Shown here one piece after another: positions 12,001 through 18,000 of a stretch of DNA of 64,000 nucleotides. Positions within the stretch are counted from its first letter, which is position 1, and every line of letters begins with the position of its first letter. The stretch comes from a candidate division WOR-3 bacterium (lineage in GTDB: Bacteria; Hydrothermota; Hydrothermia; JBDRYB01), in NCBI GenBank assembly GCA_049969615.1, contig JBMFOM010000001.1:1-64000 (forward strand), written 5' to 3'. A program made the position numbers.

Positions 12001-15000
12001 CGGAGTGACGGGCGCTATACAGTGGACATACGCCGTTGGATCAGAGTGTCACCGAGGCCTGGCAATTGCCGACATAAACGGGGACAACGCGCTTGAGATC
12101 ATAGTCCCCAACAGGGGCTCAGAGCTCCTGTGCCTGAGGCCAAATGGAACACTGCTCTGGTCATACACCGCCCCCACATCTGACATACACGACCCCGCGG
12201 TCGCTGATATTGACGATGATAACTGCCTTGAGATAGTGGTCGCCTTGGCCGCCACCACGAACAACCTCCTCGCGCTGGATGACCCCGGCAATGTGTCCGG
12301 ATGTAGTGCGGTGAAAACAGAAGAGGAAACGGCCACACCCGGTATTCAGTTCTCGGCAAGGGCATCCGGGTTATTCCTCGTGCTCCCGGAGGCGACACGG
12401 ATAACCCTTTCTATTTATGATCCCGCTGGGAGAATGGTCTCCAGGCTCTTTGAGGGAGAGTTGCGGCCGGGCGAACACCTTTTCAAACTGCCAGCGCTCC
12501 CCGGCGGAGTCTATATAGGCATCCTGGAATACCCAGAGGGCAGCAAAGCAACAAAGGTGAACATAAGGTAAGTAGGCAGTCGCCTGGATTATACTTTGTG
12601 AGTGTTCAAGAGGACTCATACCTGTGGTGATCTGAGGAAAACCGACGATGGAAAGGAAGTATGTCTTGCTGGCTGGGTCAGAAGGATCAGGGACCTGGGG
12701 GGACTGACCTTTGTTGATCTGAGGGATAGATACGGTAGGACACAGGTGGTTTTTGAGACGCCGGACCTTGCCGAAAAGGCAAAATCCCTAGGTAGGGAGT
12801 TTTTCATAGGGGTTTTAGGCAGGGTTCGCATGAGGCCCGAGAAGGACAGAAACCCAGAAATGCCCACCGGAGATGTGGAGGTCGTGGCAACAGACCTCAG
12901 CGTTCTCGGCAAATCAAAAACTCCCCCTTTTCTCATTGAGGACGAGACTGACGCGGCCGAGGATCTGAGGCTCAGATACCGTTATCTTGATCTCAGGAGG
13001 CCACGGATGATCCGGAACCTGAAAGTGAGGAACCAGGCCGCGGCCATAGTTAGGACATACCTCTGGGAGAAGGGGTTCCTTGAGATAGAAACGCCCCTCC
13101 TTGCAAAAAGCACCCCTGAGGGGGCAAGGGATTTTCTCGTGCCGTGCCGATTACAAAGGGGGAAGTTCTACGCCCTTCCGCAATCTCCGCAGATATACAA
13201 GCAGATCCTCACCATAGCAGGGGTTGACAGGTATTTTCAGATAGTCAAGTGTCTCAGGGACGAGGACCTTCGGGCTGACCGACAACCTGAGTTCACCCAG
13301 ATTGACATTGAGATGGCACTTGCCACGCCCGAAGCGGTCTATGAGCTGGTTGAGGGGTTCATGAGGAGGCTATTCGGAGAGATTCTCGGTGTTGACCTCA
13401 GGCCGCCTTTCCCAAGGCTGAGCTACGCGGAGGCAATGGCTAGGTATGGCTCCGACAAGCCAGATCTCAGGTTTGACATGGAGCTCCAGGATCTAACCGA
13501 GACCTACCGCGGCAAGGGCTTTGGCATCCTGGATAAATCCATAGCTAGTGGCGGCACGATCATTGGGATTGAGGTCCCGTGCGAGCTATCCCGAAAAGAA
13601 ATTGAGGATCACGCCGCTTTCATCCAGAGCCTTGGCGCGGGAGGACTTCTCTGGTTCAAACCGCCGGAATCTGGGCCCTTGGCCAAATACACTGAGAAAG
13701 GCCTGATCAAAGATGGAAACACGCTTTTGGTTATAGCTGGACAGGCCCCTACCGTTCAGGGAATTGCCGGCGCACTGAGGCTCAGGGTCGCAAAAAGTAA
13801 GAACATCATCCCCCAGAACGAGTATAAAACACTATGGGTTCAGGATTTTCCTCTATTTGAGTGGAACCGTGAAGAGGGCCGTGTTCAGCCCATGCACCAT
13901 GTCTTTACAACGCCCAACCCGGATGACGTGGACATGTTGGTGGAACTGGAGGACCTTGTTTTGCAAGCAGCTAGCCAACGCTGGGAACCGGGCGAAACCC
14001 CCGGTGCGCTTAGCCGGCTCCTATGGGGCATAAGGGGCCTTCAATATGACCTGGTCATAAATGGCGCAGAGCTCGGCTCAGGTTCCATCCGTTGCCATGA
14101 CCCAGAGCTCCAAAGGAGGCTTCTGAGAATCGCTGGCCTCAACCCGGAGAATTTTTCGTTCCTGCTTGAGGCGCTTGAATATGGCGCTCCTCCACATGGC
14201 GGCATCGCAATGGGCTTTGACAGAATAGTGGCGATGCTCTGCGGCGAGGAAAGCATAAGGGAGGTGATAGCATTTCCGAAAACAACATCGGGTTCTGGCC
14301 TGATGGAAGGCTCTCCATCGGAAGTGGAAGAAGGCCAGCTGAGGGAGCTGGGGATCAGGCTTGAAGAGGGCAAAAAACAATGTGACCCTGGATAATCCTG
14401 GGAACCTGACAACTAAGACAAGCGGCGAGGGTATGTATATGCGCATTTCTGGCTACAGATTCCTTTATTCGTGATCCTTTCCTCAAATGGTCTCGGAATG
14501 CCCGTGGCTCTTGTTATAACTTGAGAAGCTCAATTTTTGCTCCGAAACCCGTCAAACCCTTACTCCAACTTGCGATAGGGCCAAGAAAGGCCAGCCGGGA
14601 AGAATCACTGCCGGTGGCCAAACTGGCAAAGGATGAAACCTGGCCCTTATAATATTCAGGATGACTTCTCTTGATGTGTTATGGCTAGCCGTGGCCTTCT
14701 CGGTAATCCTCTTGGCCATAGGGCTTTTCGTGGTCCTACTTGAACTCAGGAACCTTTTCAGGGACAGCAGAGATACAGTTAGGATAACCAACTCAGAGCT
14801 ACCAACGATCCTGAAAAACCTGGCCAGGGCAACCGAGGAAATGGAAAGGGCCGTGGCCAACATTAACACAGTAACGGGCGGGCTTGCATCGGTCTCCGGC
14901 GTCATCTCTTCCATATCTGAGAAACTGAAGGGAGGATGGTTTGGAACAGGCCTGGCCGCTGGGATTGACCTCATCAGAAATCTATTCAAACGGAGGAAAT

Positions 15001-18000
15001 AGAAATGAGCGACAGGGGCAGTTCAACTGGATGGGCCCTGGCTAGTTTTGCCCTGGGAGTTATAGTTGGAGCCGCTATAGGCGTGCTTCTCGCCCCAGCT
15101 TCCGGAGAGGAAACCAGAGAGCGCCTGAAGGAAACCCTTGATAAAGCCAAGGAAAAGGGCAAAGAGCTTGTTGATAGGGCAAGGGAAAAGCTTTTTGAGC
15201 AGGAAGGCGAGGAAGAAGAGATATAAAATGGGATCACCCTGATCCCAACCGAGGAGAACCATGCTCATAGGGATAAACGGATTCGGCCGGGTTGGCCGGC
15301 AGGTTTTTAAGATAGCCCTTGAGAGAGGGCACAGGATAGCGGGCATCAACGACCTCTTTGATGCTCCGATTCTCGCGCAACTCCTAAAATACGACTCGGT
15401 CTATGGCAAATACAACAGGAAGGTTGAGGCGGGAGACGGATTCATTTCCGTTGACGGCGTGAAGTATCCCGTGACAGCGCACAAAGACCCAAAAGAGATA
15501 CCCTGGGGTGAATGGAAGGCCGATATGGTCATTGAGGCCTCAGGGGCATTCAGGTCAAAGGACAAGGCCGGCGCGCACCTCCGGGACACGGTGAAAAAGG
15601 TCATAATCACCGCTCCCGCAAAGGGTGAGATAGACGCGACCTTTGTCATGGGTTGCAACGAGCACAGCTATGACCCACAGAAACATCACATAGTCTCCAA
15701 CGCTTCATGCACGACGAACGCGTTCGCACACATGGTCCGCGTCATAAAGGAACGGTTCGGGATAAAGAGGGGCCTCATGACAACGGTCCACGCCTACACC
15801 AATGACCAGCGCATCCTGGATGCGCCGCACAAGGACCTCAGACGAGCCCGCACAGCAGGGGTCTCAATAATACCGACATCAACCGGCGCGGCTAAGGCAA
15901 TAACCATAATATATCCGGATCTCAAGGGCAAGCTTGACGCGGTCGCGCTCAGGGTCCCCACGCAGGATGCCTCGCTGGTGGATTTCGCGGTTGAGGTTGA
16001 GAGGCCCACGACAGCAGAGGAAATAAACGATGCCTTCCGCGCCTATTCCGAGGCAAACCCGAAATACATGGGCGTAGCAGAGGACGAGCTCGTGTCCATA
16101 GACATAGTTGGCGAGCGCAGGTCGGTTCTCATTGACCCGTTCCTCACCCAGGTCGTTGATGGAACCATGGTCAAGGTCTTCGGCTGGTATGACAACGAAT
16201 GGGGTTATTCGGAGAGGGTTGTTGACCTTGCCGAATATATATTGAAATAACTTTGATAGCCTCTTGGAAACCAGGGAGGGATGTTCGTTATCATCCCTCC
16301 CTTTCTTCTGCCCTCGCGACTGGCGCGCCGCTCATCCTAGCCATGGACGCCGGAACCTTCCCGTTTCAGGGTGCGCTTGACCGTTTCCTTTCTGAGCTTA
16401 AGAAATCCGGTGTCTCCCTCGCCTACTCTTCATACGAGACGGACGCCGGATTAGTCGCCGCCATCCCCTTCAACGGCGACATAACAGAGAGGTTTCCCTT
16501 TGGCCCAATAAGGGCGTATCTCTCCGAAAACCTAATGAAGACTAGGGCCAAGAGATTCGCGCACGCCTGGGAATACCAGGCAAGGCTCGTGCTTGAGGAA
16601 GCCGGACTACTCCCCCGCCCCATCGCGGAACCCCTTTATTTTTACGAGCCTCACCTGAGACCAAGGCCGGATCTCAGGGAATACTGGGACGGGAAATCTA
16701 TAGAAAATCAGGACCTCTGGGAATCCTTCGCATACCTGAATTATCCGCCGGAAAGAGACGCGGAGCTCCGTGAGGTCTTCTGTGATATGCTCAGAAGGCG
16801 CGGCGCGTTCCTGGAGGATTTTGAGCCAGAGCGAACCTTCCCCTCTGGCAAGGGGGAAAACGACCTCATGGCCTCGGTCTTGATACCCGTCCGCAACAGG
16901 GAAAAATTCATAGGCCACGCGATAGAATCCGCGTTGGCCCAGGATTTCCGTAATTACGAAGTCATAGTCATTGACAACGCTTCCGAGGACAAGACAAGGG
17001 ATATTGTGAGGGGTTTCAGGGATCCTATGCTCCGGCTTATTGAAAATCCAATGGGTTCCATCGCTTTGGCTTTGAACACGGGCCTGGCAGCCGCGAGGGG
17101 AAAATATATTCTGCAGTTGGACTCGGACGACGCCTACACCAAAGAAACCATAGGGACAATGGTGGAATTCATGGAAGCAAACCCCAGCTGTGGCCTCGGT
17201 ATATCATATTACCAGATAACCGACGAGAACATGAATCCCATTCCAAACGGAATAGTAAAACACCTTGAATACGACCGAAACAACATCCTGAGGTGCGAGG
17301 GTGCTGGTGCGGTCAGGTGTTGGCGAAGGGAAGTCCTCCTGGAAATAGGCGGTTTTGACGAGGAGTTCGGAATGTATGGCGAGGATTATGACGCTATCCT
17401 CAAGGTCTCGGAGAGATACGAGGTAGGCCGGGTTCATGAGGTTCTATATTATTACAGGAGACACGGGGGATCGCAAGATGTCATCCAGTCAAGGGTTGAC
17501 AAGCTCAACTCCAAAACCCGTATAAGACTCAGGGCACTAGAGAGAAGAAAGGCGCTTGTTAGGAATCGTGAAAACAAAGGAAATCCCAAAAGCCCTTGAG
17601 GCCAGATACGGCAGGCCGAGGCGAATGCCGAGACCATTGCTGGACTGCCTAGTGAAAACCATCCTGTCCCAGAACACCACGGATAAACTGAGGGACGAGG
17701 CTTACTCCCGGCTCACGGAAAGATTTGCATCCTGGGAGAAAATGCGCGAGGCCCGCGTTTCGGAAATAACCCATGCTATCCGGGTCTCAGGCCTTCACGA
17801 GCAGAAAACGGAGGCAATAAAAGCGCTCTTGGAAATGGCCTCGGAGCACGATTATGACCTCTCCTTCATATGCAAAATGGGACCGGCACAGGCATATGCG
17901 CTCCTCAGGGGCATAAAGGGTATAGGGGACAAAACCGCGAAGGTCTGCCTACTGTTTTCGTGCGGAATGCCCTTCTTCCCCGTGGACACACACATAGCGA

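Follow-up and report, generated by a model that had tools for sequence, protein, structure and literature searches.

Does transcription in this candidate division WOR-3 genome (G000) begin at the start codon itself, so that the mRNA has no leader? The question is raised by a locus at positions 14615..15002 of the window, the whole 64,000-nucleotide stretch of DNA that was analyzed, where a TATAAT box lies almost against a start codon.

Promoter boxes beside start codons in the window

At this locus, the -10 box TATAAT (14648..14653, forward strand) is followed after 7 nt by ATG 14661, the earliest start codon in its ORF and the predicted leaderless start of a 113 aa gene (14661..15002, forward strand). 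The first-pass annotation had given 14615 as the start of the example; this coordinate does bracket the promoter region but is not a codon of the example's frame. The encoded protein has an N-terminal membrane helix, and Pfam gave a weak DUF948 match (28.7 bits, under the 37.2 cut-off). By direct reading of the sequence, we found a -35 element, TGGCAA (14624..14629, forward strand), 18 nt upstream of the -10 box, a 5/6 match to the genome's own -35 consensus TTG[C/A]A. A scan based on the E. coli consensus returned no promoter here, and the -35 rule of that scan misfits the TGGCAA/TTGCAA type of this genome. In the congener G002, alignable homology starts at 14644, and the -10 box, the spacer to the ATG, and the ATG are all identical, confirming the earlier claim for the box and the start; the -35 element is kept, and its spacer differs. 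The two orthologous proteins share 78% identity. The second gene of the unit encodes a 73 aa YtxH-like protein (15005..15226, forward strand; Pfam YtxH, 61.2 bits, cut-off 37.5) and is preceded by a GGAGG located within the end of the example gene, suggesting that the unit opens with a leaderless gene and continues with a Shine-Dalgarno-led one.

We observed other candidates in the window, three of which could be compared with the N termini of protein families. Alignments of aspartyl-tRNA synthetase (AspRS; 12590..14395, forward strand; TATACT 12590-12595, 6 nt, GTG 12602) with 80 distant relatives begin at query residue 1-8, mostly 2-4. These relatives share at most 52% identity, with no close orthologs among those found, and the closest named ones include Bacteroidota and allied (FCB-type) lineages. 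GTG 12602 is the first start of its ORF, and the upstream gene is only 30 nt away. For biotin carboxylase (3120..4493, forward strand; AATAAT 3120-3125, 6 nt, ATG 3132) and pantoate-beta-alanine ligase (PanC; 43975..44841, forward strand; TATAAT 43975-43980, 6 nt, GTG 43987), the Pfam profiles begin at residue 1-2: positions 1-110 of 110 of Biotin_carb_N match residues 1-110, and positions 1-268 of 268 of Pantoate_ligase match residues 2-280. The predicted starts of these sequences thus show agreement with the family N termini.

The forward strand also holds a gene with no Pfam family (117..1088; TAAAAT 117-122, 6 nt, GTG 129), whose box contains an in-frame TAA and is weaker evidence for that reason; an FG-GAP repeat protein gene (45895..48348; TATAAT 45895-45900, 6 nt, ATG 45907; Pfam) with the repeated cassette described below; and a ParA/NUBPL-type ATPase gene (58079..59147; TATAAT 58079-58084, 7 nt, ATG 58092; Pfam). 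A weak candidate at 59166..59739 (forward strand; CATAAT 59166-59171, 7 nt, GTG 59179), only 31 nt past the preceding gene, may be a chance match. On the reverse strand, all with a 6 nt spacing, are a radical SAM gene with the cassette (20123..20938; TATAAT 20938-20933, GTG 20926; Pfam), a Cas6 gene (40690..41445; TATCAT 41445-41440, GTG 41433; Pfam), an HTH protein gene (45048..45608; CATAAT 45608-45603, ATG 45596; Pfam), and three further genes at 4948..5457 (TATAAT 5457-5452, ATG 5445), 51342..53444 (TATATT 53444-53439, ATG 53432), and 53843..54832 (TATAAT 54832-54827, ATG 54820).

Spacing and promoter character across the genome

We then took the spacing between boxes and start codons across all of G000 (2,062,147 bases, 203 contigs, GC 53.8%). 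Genes and their starts were called with our own simple codon-usage model, giving 1722 genes of at least 90 aa and 84.7% coding; a box was defined as at least five of six matches to TATAAT, with A2 and T6 fixed. Among 4033 start-zone codons, 215 had a box ending 6 nt upstream and 83 had one ending at 7 nt, while other offsets mostly gave ∼10-50 boxes, and the in-frame offsets 0 and 9 reached 75 and 68. Internal in-frame codons served as a control and had 46 (6 nt) and 96 (7 nt) boxes among 24,861. The exact TATAAT was sharper still, with 123 candidate starts at 6 nt versus two of the 24,861 internal codons and 1-5 at offsets 1-5. We noted one artifact. A box with a stop codon in frame, as in TATAAT when it ends at 8 nt and in variants beginning with TAA or TAG at 6 or 9 nt, is overrepresented beside codons that are first in their ORF. 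After such boxes were removed, 176 and 77 remained at 6 and 7 nt over a background of 16.8 per offset, and the 51 boxes at 8 nt fell to 13.

In all, 295 of 1722 genes had a box at 6-7 nt (350 of 1723 at 6-8 nt). Seven control offset pairs yielded 24-59 genes each, the share of the 295 expected by chance, and the net excess is therefore ∼240-260 genes, or 14-15% of genes. The earlier figure of 349 of 1726 genes, "about a fifth", stands as a raw count but overstates this net share; the control rates at internal codons given with it were closely matched (1.85, 3.0, and 4.8 per 1000 in G000, G002, and G005). Clear false positives exist, such as a box on contig C7 that overlaps a Shine-Dalgarno-led ATG. 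At 6 nt, ATG was enriched 29-fold, GTG 64-fold, and TTG 5.4-fold, the same direction as the 8-10 fold (ATG, GTG) and 3.6 fold (TTG) first reported but stronger. The weakly enriched TTG starts (5-6 fold) are a misfit to a purine transcription start. A Shine-Dalgarno-like 4-mer preceded 5 of the 295 candidates versus 555 of the 1427 other genes, and the genome has a Shine-Dalgarno peak at 5-9 nt (40-56 per 1000, versus 5-10 per 1000 internal codons).

The boxes have the surroundings of a promoter. A -35 TTG was found at a spacer of 17 or 18 nt in 135 of the 295 candidates, with 0-9 at each other spacer. In the candidates, a T-rich pair comes directly after the -10 box, as it does in 110 candidate leadered promoters, which share the same extended consensus. 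Of the candidates, 50% have C at -1 and 94% have A or G at +1. Among those spaced at 7 nt, 49% have C at -1, which leaves the exact start base uncertain there. We also observed a restriction to first genes: 247 of 803 operon-leading genes had a box, versus 32-53 at control offsets, while operon-internal genes were at the control level (10 of 544, versus 8). Box genes numbered 115 of 350 in the divergent arrangement, versus 7 of 544 where the gap is 20 nt or less. The leaderless-type share of operon-leading genes is 31% raw and ∼25% net. Because of the -35 spacing, the restriction to operon-leading genes, the bases around the predicted start (a pyrimidine at -1, a purine at +1), and the phylogenetic footprint described below, the sequence data support the idea that the boxes are sigma-70 promoters set for transcription beginning at the start codon.

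Conservation, the repeated cassette, and other readings

Within the genus, we compared 41 orthologous starts in a 400 kb sample of G002: the start codon was kept in 36, the box in 33, and both in 32, similar to the 41 starts and 37 boxes of 44 reported before. Identity to G002 was 0.66-0.93 at positions -13 to -5, ∼0.4-0.6 at the -35, and ∼0.14-0.4 elsewhere upstream; these sequence comparisons show selection on the box and the start codon in this genus. Counts of TATAAT-N6-RTG over the whole genome, against control patterns (an N11 spacing and the reversed pattern), set this genus clearly apart (G000, 167 versus 15; G001, 159 versus 17; G002, 182 versus 26), and low-GC relatives were swamped by background. 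Relatives were compared by full offset profiles on their DNA, replacing the pattern counts.

We sampled six of the 12 families seen, with one genome each outside f1, and observed the peak at 6-7 nt in five (f1, f3, f4, f7, and f10). Outside f1, the peak had P values of 1.7e-5 to 1.3e-8 (G004 of f3, G005 of f4, G008 of f7, and G016 of f10). The recurrence first reported for G002 and G005 was seen in both. The net level was ∼4-8% of genes outside the genus versus 11-13% in G000 and G002. A -35 at 17-18 nt accompanied the boxes in 13/33 cases in G004, 14/44 in G005, 17/37 in G016, and 6/25 in G008. The low-GC genome G020 (f8) was unconvincing, with a 3-periodic pattern and no -35 signal (3/40), and the only other lineage of the phylum that was profiled (two genomes, one family) had a weak peak or none. 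Of 85 orthologs of leaderless-type genes in other families, four were leaderless-type, no excess over controls (7/97 and 6/135). Hence, what had been described as conserved across the class holds only as a genome-wide tendency, seen in five of six families; individual genes do not keep their state between families.

A cassette, a repeat of ∼45 nt, occurs in 150 copies in G000, of which 104 abut a TATAAT. It is present on 49 of the 295 candidates and absent from 246, which bears out the first-pass annotation (71 with the cassette, 278 without) in that the trait is not confined to it. Two cassette loci of the window had no blastn match in the G002 sample, and dc-megablast against that sample aligned 14644-18175 alone, so insertion boundaries of the cassette were not definable. 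The G002 orthologs do not have the module, yet the -10 box and start codon are at the same place. We tentatively raise the possibility, which we regard as doubtful, that the class is an unrecognized leaderless-rich lineage apart from Actinobacteria and Deinococcus-Thermus in which, in this genus, a repeated ∼45 nt promoter module found before at least 49 leaderless-type genes actively spreads the architecture. If so, mobile promoters would turn over while the zero-length leader is preserved. Another repeat, at 14515-14560 ahead of the example, had only three ungapped copies and was dropped.

We considered whether the peak could arise from start candidates being defined by ORFs (with in-frame stops in AT-rich boxes), from the cassette, or from chance. 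Stop-containing boxes do inflate the counts, most visibly at 8 nt, and the cassette is abundant. However, TATAAT at 6 nt, the main component (123 of 215), has no in-frame stop, the peak outlasts removal of the stop-containing boxes, and an independent genome, G002, retains the boxes. The cassette-free majority and the stop-box removal largely refute this reading, and we give it almost no weight. In another reading, the box would be no promoter at all; leadered mRNAs would carry it as an AT-rich ribosome-binding signal of a non-Shine-Dalgarno kind, like that of Bacteroidota (GeneMarkS-2 group B). In its favor, the box and a Shine-Dalgarno site stand equally far from the start, Bacteroidota and allied lineages are among the closest named relatives by AspRS, and the f8 boxes are without a -35. 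It is nonetheless very unlikely, as a translation signal would be expected before operon-internal genes too (the criterion of PMC6028130), and these carry the box only at the control level. The -35 at 17-18 nt, the extended consensus identical to that of candidate leadered promoters, and the ordinary Shine-Dalgarno peak in G000 also argue against it.

The promoters might also be real and many of the adjacent codons false starts, with proteins beginning further downstream on short-leadered mRNAs. Our start calls come from a simple model, in-frame ATG, GTG, and TTG codons are frequent near N termini, and, relative to the coding-potential optimum, the candidate start is further downstream in 61 of 295 cases and further upstream in 59. 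On the other hand, 36 of 41 G002 orthologs keep the start codon, and the frame-specific peak requires that codon. Immediately after the start codon, 55% of candidates have an A, the same share as among Shine-Dalgarno-led starts (55%; internal codons, 29%), and an alternative start with a Shine-Dalgarno-like 4-mer within 60 nt was found for 19 of 295 candidates versus 175 of the 1427 other genes. Together with the N termini of biotin carboxylase, PanC, and AspRS, these observations leave downstream starts an improbable general explanation, if the least improbable of the three.

Leaderless transcription is very probably the explanation that holds: judged from sequence, ∼250 genes of G000, or ∼15% of the total and between a quarter and a third of those that lead operons, would be transcribed as leaderless mRNAs. 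A housekeeping sigma-70-type promoter (-35 TTG[C/A]A, 17-18 nt, TATAAT, T-rich pair) would sit directly against the ORF. Because the -10 box abuts the ORF, RNA polymerase would begin on the first base (A or G) of the ATG or GTG, 7-8 nt past the final T of the box, and ribosomes would read the 5'-terminal start codon with no Shine-Dalgarno sequence to guide them. Ordinary Shine-Dalgarno sites would serve the downstream genes of leaderless operons and the remaining operons. The sequence itself shows the geometry, the promoter character, the restriction to first genes, the selection within the genus, and the agreement with family N termini; where transcripts truly start and how ribosomes load onto them are inferred. 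A look-up of RNA runs for positions 40001-50000 of the window listed none.

Relation to known leaderless systems

Leaderless expression itself is well known in other bacteria; here it is predicted in a lineage where it is undescribed, adding an uncultured lineage to the scattered bacterial distribution of leaderless initiation and leaving the understanding of its mechanism unchanged. Gene callers that expect a ribosome-binding site would mis-set starts in genomes of this lineage. With about a quarter of operons predicted to be leaderless, the genome would gain corrected N termini and a ready promoter map. Within one class, the trait appears to persist genome-wide while single genes switch between leaderless and Shine-Dalgarno-led initiation.

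The sections of the literature drawn on here describe several comparable systems. In Bacteroidota (group B), a non-Shine-Dalgarno ribosome-binding motif occurs before operon-internal genes too and is no promoter (PMC6028130, PMC3155529). G000 resembles this group in its AT-rich motif near the start codon and in the FCB-type relatives nearest to its AspRS, but its operon-internal genes are without the motif and a -35 is present. The TA-led genes of Zheng et al. (2011) have a TA-like signal ∼10-12 nt upstream of the start in 953 cultured-era bacterial genomes, with a TAtaaT form in medium-GC groups and switching of initiation mode between orthologs that rises with distance (PMC3160421). G000 has a TAtaaT-type signal as well, and its orthologs keep their state within the genus (32/41) and not between families (4/85); we found no mention of a WOR-3-type lineage in the portion of that survey covered here.

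In Deinococcus, a -10 motif adjoins ORFs with specific spacing, AUG and GUG are used, and other genes have a Shine-Dalgarno-like motif (D. deserti, PMC4007540; D. radiodurans and the phylum, PMC12340547). Starts there were mapped by RNA-seq, with 47% of mRNAs beginning exactly at the codon, and were reporter-tested (PMC4007540, PMC12340547). As far as these accounts go, G000 is alike in its ORF-adjacent -10, fixed spacing, ATG and GTG starts, and Shine-Dalgarno sites for other genes. The Deinococcus motif is a degenerate TANNNT, and the leaderless share there is ∼30% of ORFs, whereas the share in G000 is lower and its starts are predicted from DNA.

GeneMarkS-2 group C has a Pribnow box 6-8 nt from the starts of first genes in operons and Shine-Dalgarno sites elsewhere, with 25-50% of operons leaderless, and has been reported mainly for Actinobacteria (773/859) and Deinococcus-Thermus (37/38) (Lomsadze et al., 2018; PMC6028130). 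G000 differs from these reported groups in its lineage and in its near-perfect TATAAT with a clear -35. With its box at 6-8 nt before first genes, Shine-Dalgarno sites elsewhere, and 31% raw or ∼25% net of operon-leading genes, G000 matches a group C-type leaderless-rich genome, an assignment made by the published description of the group rather than by GeneMarkS-2 itself.

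TATAAT-like boxes at gene starts

We followed the spacing between promoter-like boxes and start codons across the candidate division WOR-3 genome (G000; 2,062,147 bases on 203 contigs, GC 53.8%), using 1722 genes of at least 90 aa from our own codon-usage model (84.7% coding). ATG, GTG, and TTG codons were sorted into 4033 in-frame start-zone codons near 5' ends, 24,861 in-frame internal codons, and 40,311 out-of-frame codons. An exact TATAAT ended 6 nt before 123 start-zone codons, but before only 2 internal and 5 out-of-frame codons; at offsets 1-5, the start-zone counts were 1-5. 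With a relaxed box (at least 5 of 6 matches to TATAAT, A2 and T6 fixed), 215 start-zone codons had a box at 6 nt and 83 at 7 nt. Boxes with in-frame stops are over-represented beside first-in-ORF codons, an artefact of ORF-based candidates; when these were excluded, 176 boxes at 6 nt and 77 at 7 nt stood against a background of 16.8 per offset. Counted by gene, 295 of 1722 had a relaxed box at 6-7 nt, compared with 24-59 at seven control offset pairs. The box observation is confirmed, and about 14-15% of G000 genes carry the box net of chance. The first-pass annotation had counted 349 leaderless-type genes among 1726, which we reproduced as a raw figure at 6-8 nt (350 of 1723).

The boxes of the 295 candidates show promoter character. 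Of these candidates, 135 have a TTG upstream of the box at a spacer of 17 or 18 nt; every other spacer between 10 and 25 nt is found 0-9 times. In 173 candidates with 6-nt spacing that lack the cassette, a repeated promoter module of G000, positions -36 to -34 were T (0.72), T (0.66), and G (0.86). We also observed that G000 promoters are unlike the E. coli consensus: their -35 is TTG[C/A]A, and 18-nt spacers (122) predominate over 17-nt ones (43). Directly after the -10 box, the candidates have a T-rich pair (T 0.56-0.61, then T 0.88-0.89), and 110 candidate leadered promoters, in which TATAAT lies 14-149 nt from other genes, have it too (T 0.57, then 0.81); a single kind of element thus occurs in two positions. 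At the 6-nt spacing, 50% of the candidates have C at position -1, and 94% have a purine (A or G) at +1. Start codons at this spacing were enriched 29-fold for ATG, 64-fold for GTG, and 5-fold for TTG, and the excess of ATG and GTG over TTG fits a purine transcription start. The box was present in 247 of 803 operon-leading genes (control offsets 32-53) and in 10 of 544 genes at most 20 nt behind a neighbor (control 8); operon position is the criterion described for GeneMarkS-2 in setting leaderless promoters against ribosome-binding motifs (PMC6028130).

We then asked whether the candidate codons are real starts. A Shine-Dalgarno-like 4-mer preceded 5 of 295 candidates versus 555 of 1427 other genes, and an alternative in-frame start with such a 4-mer lay within 60 nt in 19 candidates versus 175 other genes. 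The base directly after the start codon was A in 55% of candidates, as in 55% of Shine-Dalgarno-led starts, versus 29% of internal codons. A Pfam scan of 12 candidates in the window left 5 without a family; residues 1-110 of the biotin carboxylase, whose predicted start codon is at 3132, correspond to profile positions 1-110 of 110, and residues 2-280 of the pantoate ligase, with its predicted start codon at 43987, to positions 1-268 of 268. The AspRS gene starts with GTG at 12602, the first start of its ORF, 6 nt after TATACT and 30 nt after the preceding gene. Alignments of AspRS with 80 distant relatives open at residues 1-8, mostly 2-4, and its nearest named relative is from a Candidatus Hydrothermia MAG (52% identity). 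The interval 12571-12602 has no Shine-Dalgarno-like sequence ahead of AspRS. The -35 region would fall within the upstream gene, and the predicted promoter would therefore be internal, producing a leaderless mRNA from inside what looks like an operon.

An example locus, the cassette, and the CRISPR array

At the example locus on the forward strand, TGGCAA (14624-14629) lies 18 nt upstream of a TATAAT box (14648-14653), which is followed after 7 nt by ATG at 14661, the first start codon of an ORF of 113 aa (14661-15002). The protein has a hydrophobic helix at its N-terminus and matched DUF948 below threshold (28.7 bits, cut-off 37.2). The second gene (15005-15226, forward strand) is YtxH-like (61.2 bits) and is preceded by GGAGG within the end of the first gene. 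With no room for a leader at the first gene and a Shine-Dalgarno sequence at the second, this unit shows both modes. A promoter scan by E. coli consensus rules was negative here, since TGGCAA shares just 3 of 6 positions with TTGACA; measured against the -35 consensus of G000 itself, it agrees at 5 of 6. The congener G002 retains all four elements of this start (-35, -10, 7-nt spacer, and ATG) but differs in the intervening and upstream sequence; alignable homology begins at 14644, 4 nt 5' of the -10 box. The intergenic stretch upstream (14515-14610) is similar to a small repeat that other contigs also carry; a 46-nt probe found only 3 ungapped copies at up to 8 substitutions.

We also considered whether the signal might be a by-product of the cassette. 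Its 22-nt core has 150 copies in G000 at up to 5 substitutions; TATAAT comes directly after 104 of these, and 18 lie no more than 200 nt from a contig end. Cassette conservation reaches ~45 nt upstream of the box. The cassette was present in 49 of the 295 candidates and absent from 246, so the signal is no by-product of the repeat, in agreement with the first-pass annotation, which had held that it is not confined to the cassette. Where a G000 gene has the cassette, its G002 orthologue lacks it and usually has unrelated upstream DNA, yet TATAAT and the start stay in place. This points to recent spread of the cassette to promoters that already existed, or to replacement at them. Cassette copies in the window lie at 20939-20985 (reverse strand), at 45850-45894 (forward strand), and upstream of 41622.

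The window also holds a very long CRISPR array (21352 to ~33600; 183 matches to Rfam CRISPR-DR2) with a 30-nt repeat and a period of ~67 nt. No ORF of at least 150 aa was found in 20944-33931, and a Cas6 gene lies at 40690-41433 on the reverse strand.

Conservation within the genus and across the class

A 400 kb sample of G002 (357 genes) showed the same peak, with 36 boxes at 6 nt and 20 at 7 nt. By tblastn, 395 G000 proteins had matches in this sample, and 244 were retained (identity at least 60%, coverage at least 70%, aligned from no later than residue 8, with 70 nt or more of upstream sequence). Among these were 41 leaderless-type genes, of which 36 kept the start codon, 33 the box, and 32 both; several non-kept cases are evidently chance matches, for example a box overlapping a Shine-Dalgarno-led ATG. 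In the 29 cases with 6-nt spacing, ungapped identity was 0.66-0.93 at -13 to -5 and 0.38-0.62 at -36 to -31, compared with 0.14-0.41 elsewhere in -60 to -14.

Beyond the genus, the signal was weaker. TATAAT-N6-RTG outnumbered TATAAT-N11-RTG in three genomes of the genus (167 vs 15, 159 vs 17, and 182 vs 26), whereas most other genomes of the class had ratios near 1-2, and family f7 reached as much as 9 on small counts. When 81 phylum genomes were scored against the reversed pattern, the ratio was ~20 in G000 and G002, the sole genus members sampled, and at most 5.5 elsewhere where counts were not tiny. Because a low-GC background hides a modest signal, we made offset profiles on the relatives' own DNA (128-400 kb each), comparing the numbers of 5-of-6 boxes free of in-frame stops at 6 and 7 nt with a background per offset; the -35 was scored as TTG at 17-18 nt among 6-8 nt boxes, in-frame-stop boxes included. 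G004 (f3; 181 genes) gave 10 and 7 boxes (background 1.7; TTG 13/33), G005 (f4; 354 genes) 20 and 8 (4.5; 14/44), G008 (f7; 327 genes) 8 and 6 (0.9; 6/25), and G016 (f10; 266 genes) 6 and 12 (2.7; 17/37). G020 (f8; 164 genes) gave 2 and 22 (2.2; 3/40), together with 12 boxes at 10 nt and 8 at 13 nt, a codon-phase pattern for which we rejected f8 as a positive family. In whole f8 genomes, TATAAT-N11-RTG exceeded TATAAT-N6-RTG (124 vs 78 in G020, 133 vs 67 in G025) and was ~4 times its reversed control; in f8, promoters may stand a short, constant distance away from starts and not immediately at them. In another class (two genomes of one family), the first genome had 0 and 4 boxes in 109 genes (P 0.19), and the second 4 and 9 in 180 genes, with 8 more at 10 nt. 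By the strict measure, the net level was ~4-8% of genes outside the genus versus 11-13% in G000 and G002.

Cross-family orthologues were taken from the sampled parts of G004, G005, G008, G016, and G020 (identity at least 35%, alignment from residue 6 or earlier), and the leaderless state was scored as a box and start lying no more than 12 nt from the aligned position. Both were found in 4 of 85 orthologues of leaderless-type genes, 7 of 97 of other operon-leading genes, and 6 of 135 of the remainder, giving no sign of per-gene conservation across families. The test is blunt, however: at 35-60% identity, N-termini align imprecisely, and it missed a few boxes lying 8-9 nt or more away. Many orthologues of the tested genes have plain Shine-Dalgarno sites. 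The first-pass claim of a class-wide trait holds in a weak sense only, with peaks in f3, f4, f7, and f10 and no convincing one in f8. The trait is a tendency of whole genomes, with individual genes changing state rapidly; such turnover of initiation mode is described for other bacteria (PMC3160421).

Relation to known leaderless-rich genomes

Full-text literature searches returned no paper joining leaderless with WOR-3 or Stahlbacteria and no WOR-3 paper on promoters and transcription starts; within the literature searched, the trait therefore seems to be without an earlier report in this lineage. Judged on sequence, the predicted leaderless reading of the G000 candidates is well supported and very probably correct.

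Genomes of this kind are described in other lineages. GeneMarkS-2 group C is reported to have a Pribnow box 6-8 nt from the first gene of an operon and Shine-Dalgarno sites elsewhere, with 25-50% of operons leaderless, and to comprise 1028 of 4769 bacteria, mainly Actinobacteria and Deinococcus-Thermus (PMC6028130). Zheng et al. (2011) describe TA-like signals ~10-12 nt upstream of starts as leaderless markers, in the form TAtaaT in medium-GC groups (PMC3160421). For D. deserti, 47% of mRNAs are reported to begin exactly at AUG or GUG (PMC4007540), and a Deinococcus -10 motif adjoining ORFs was reporter-tested in a 2025 study whose supplementary survey of phyla may be relevant to the frequency of the trait in other lineages (PMC12340547). 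G000 agrees with the group C-type genomes in every sequence criterion and is a new lineage for a known kind of leaderless-rich genome.
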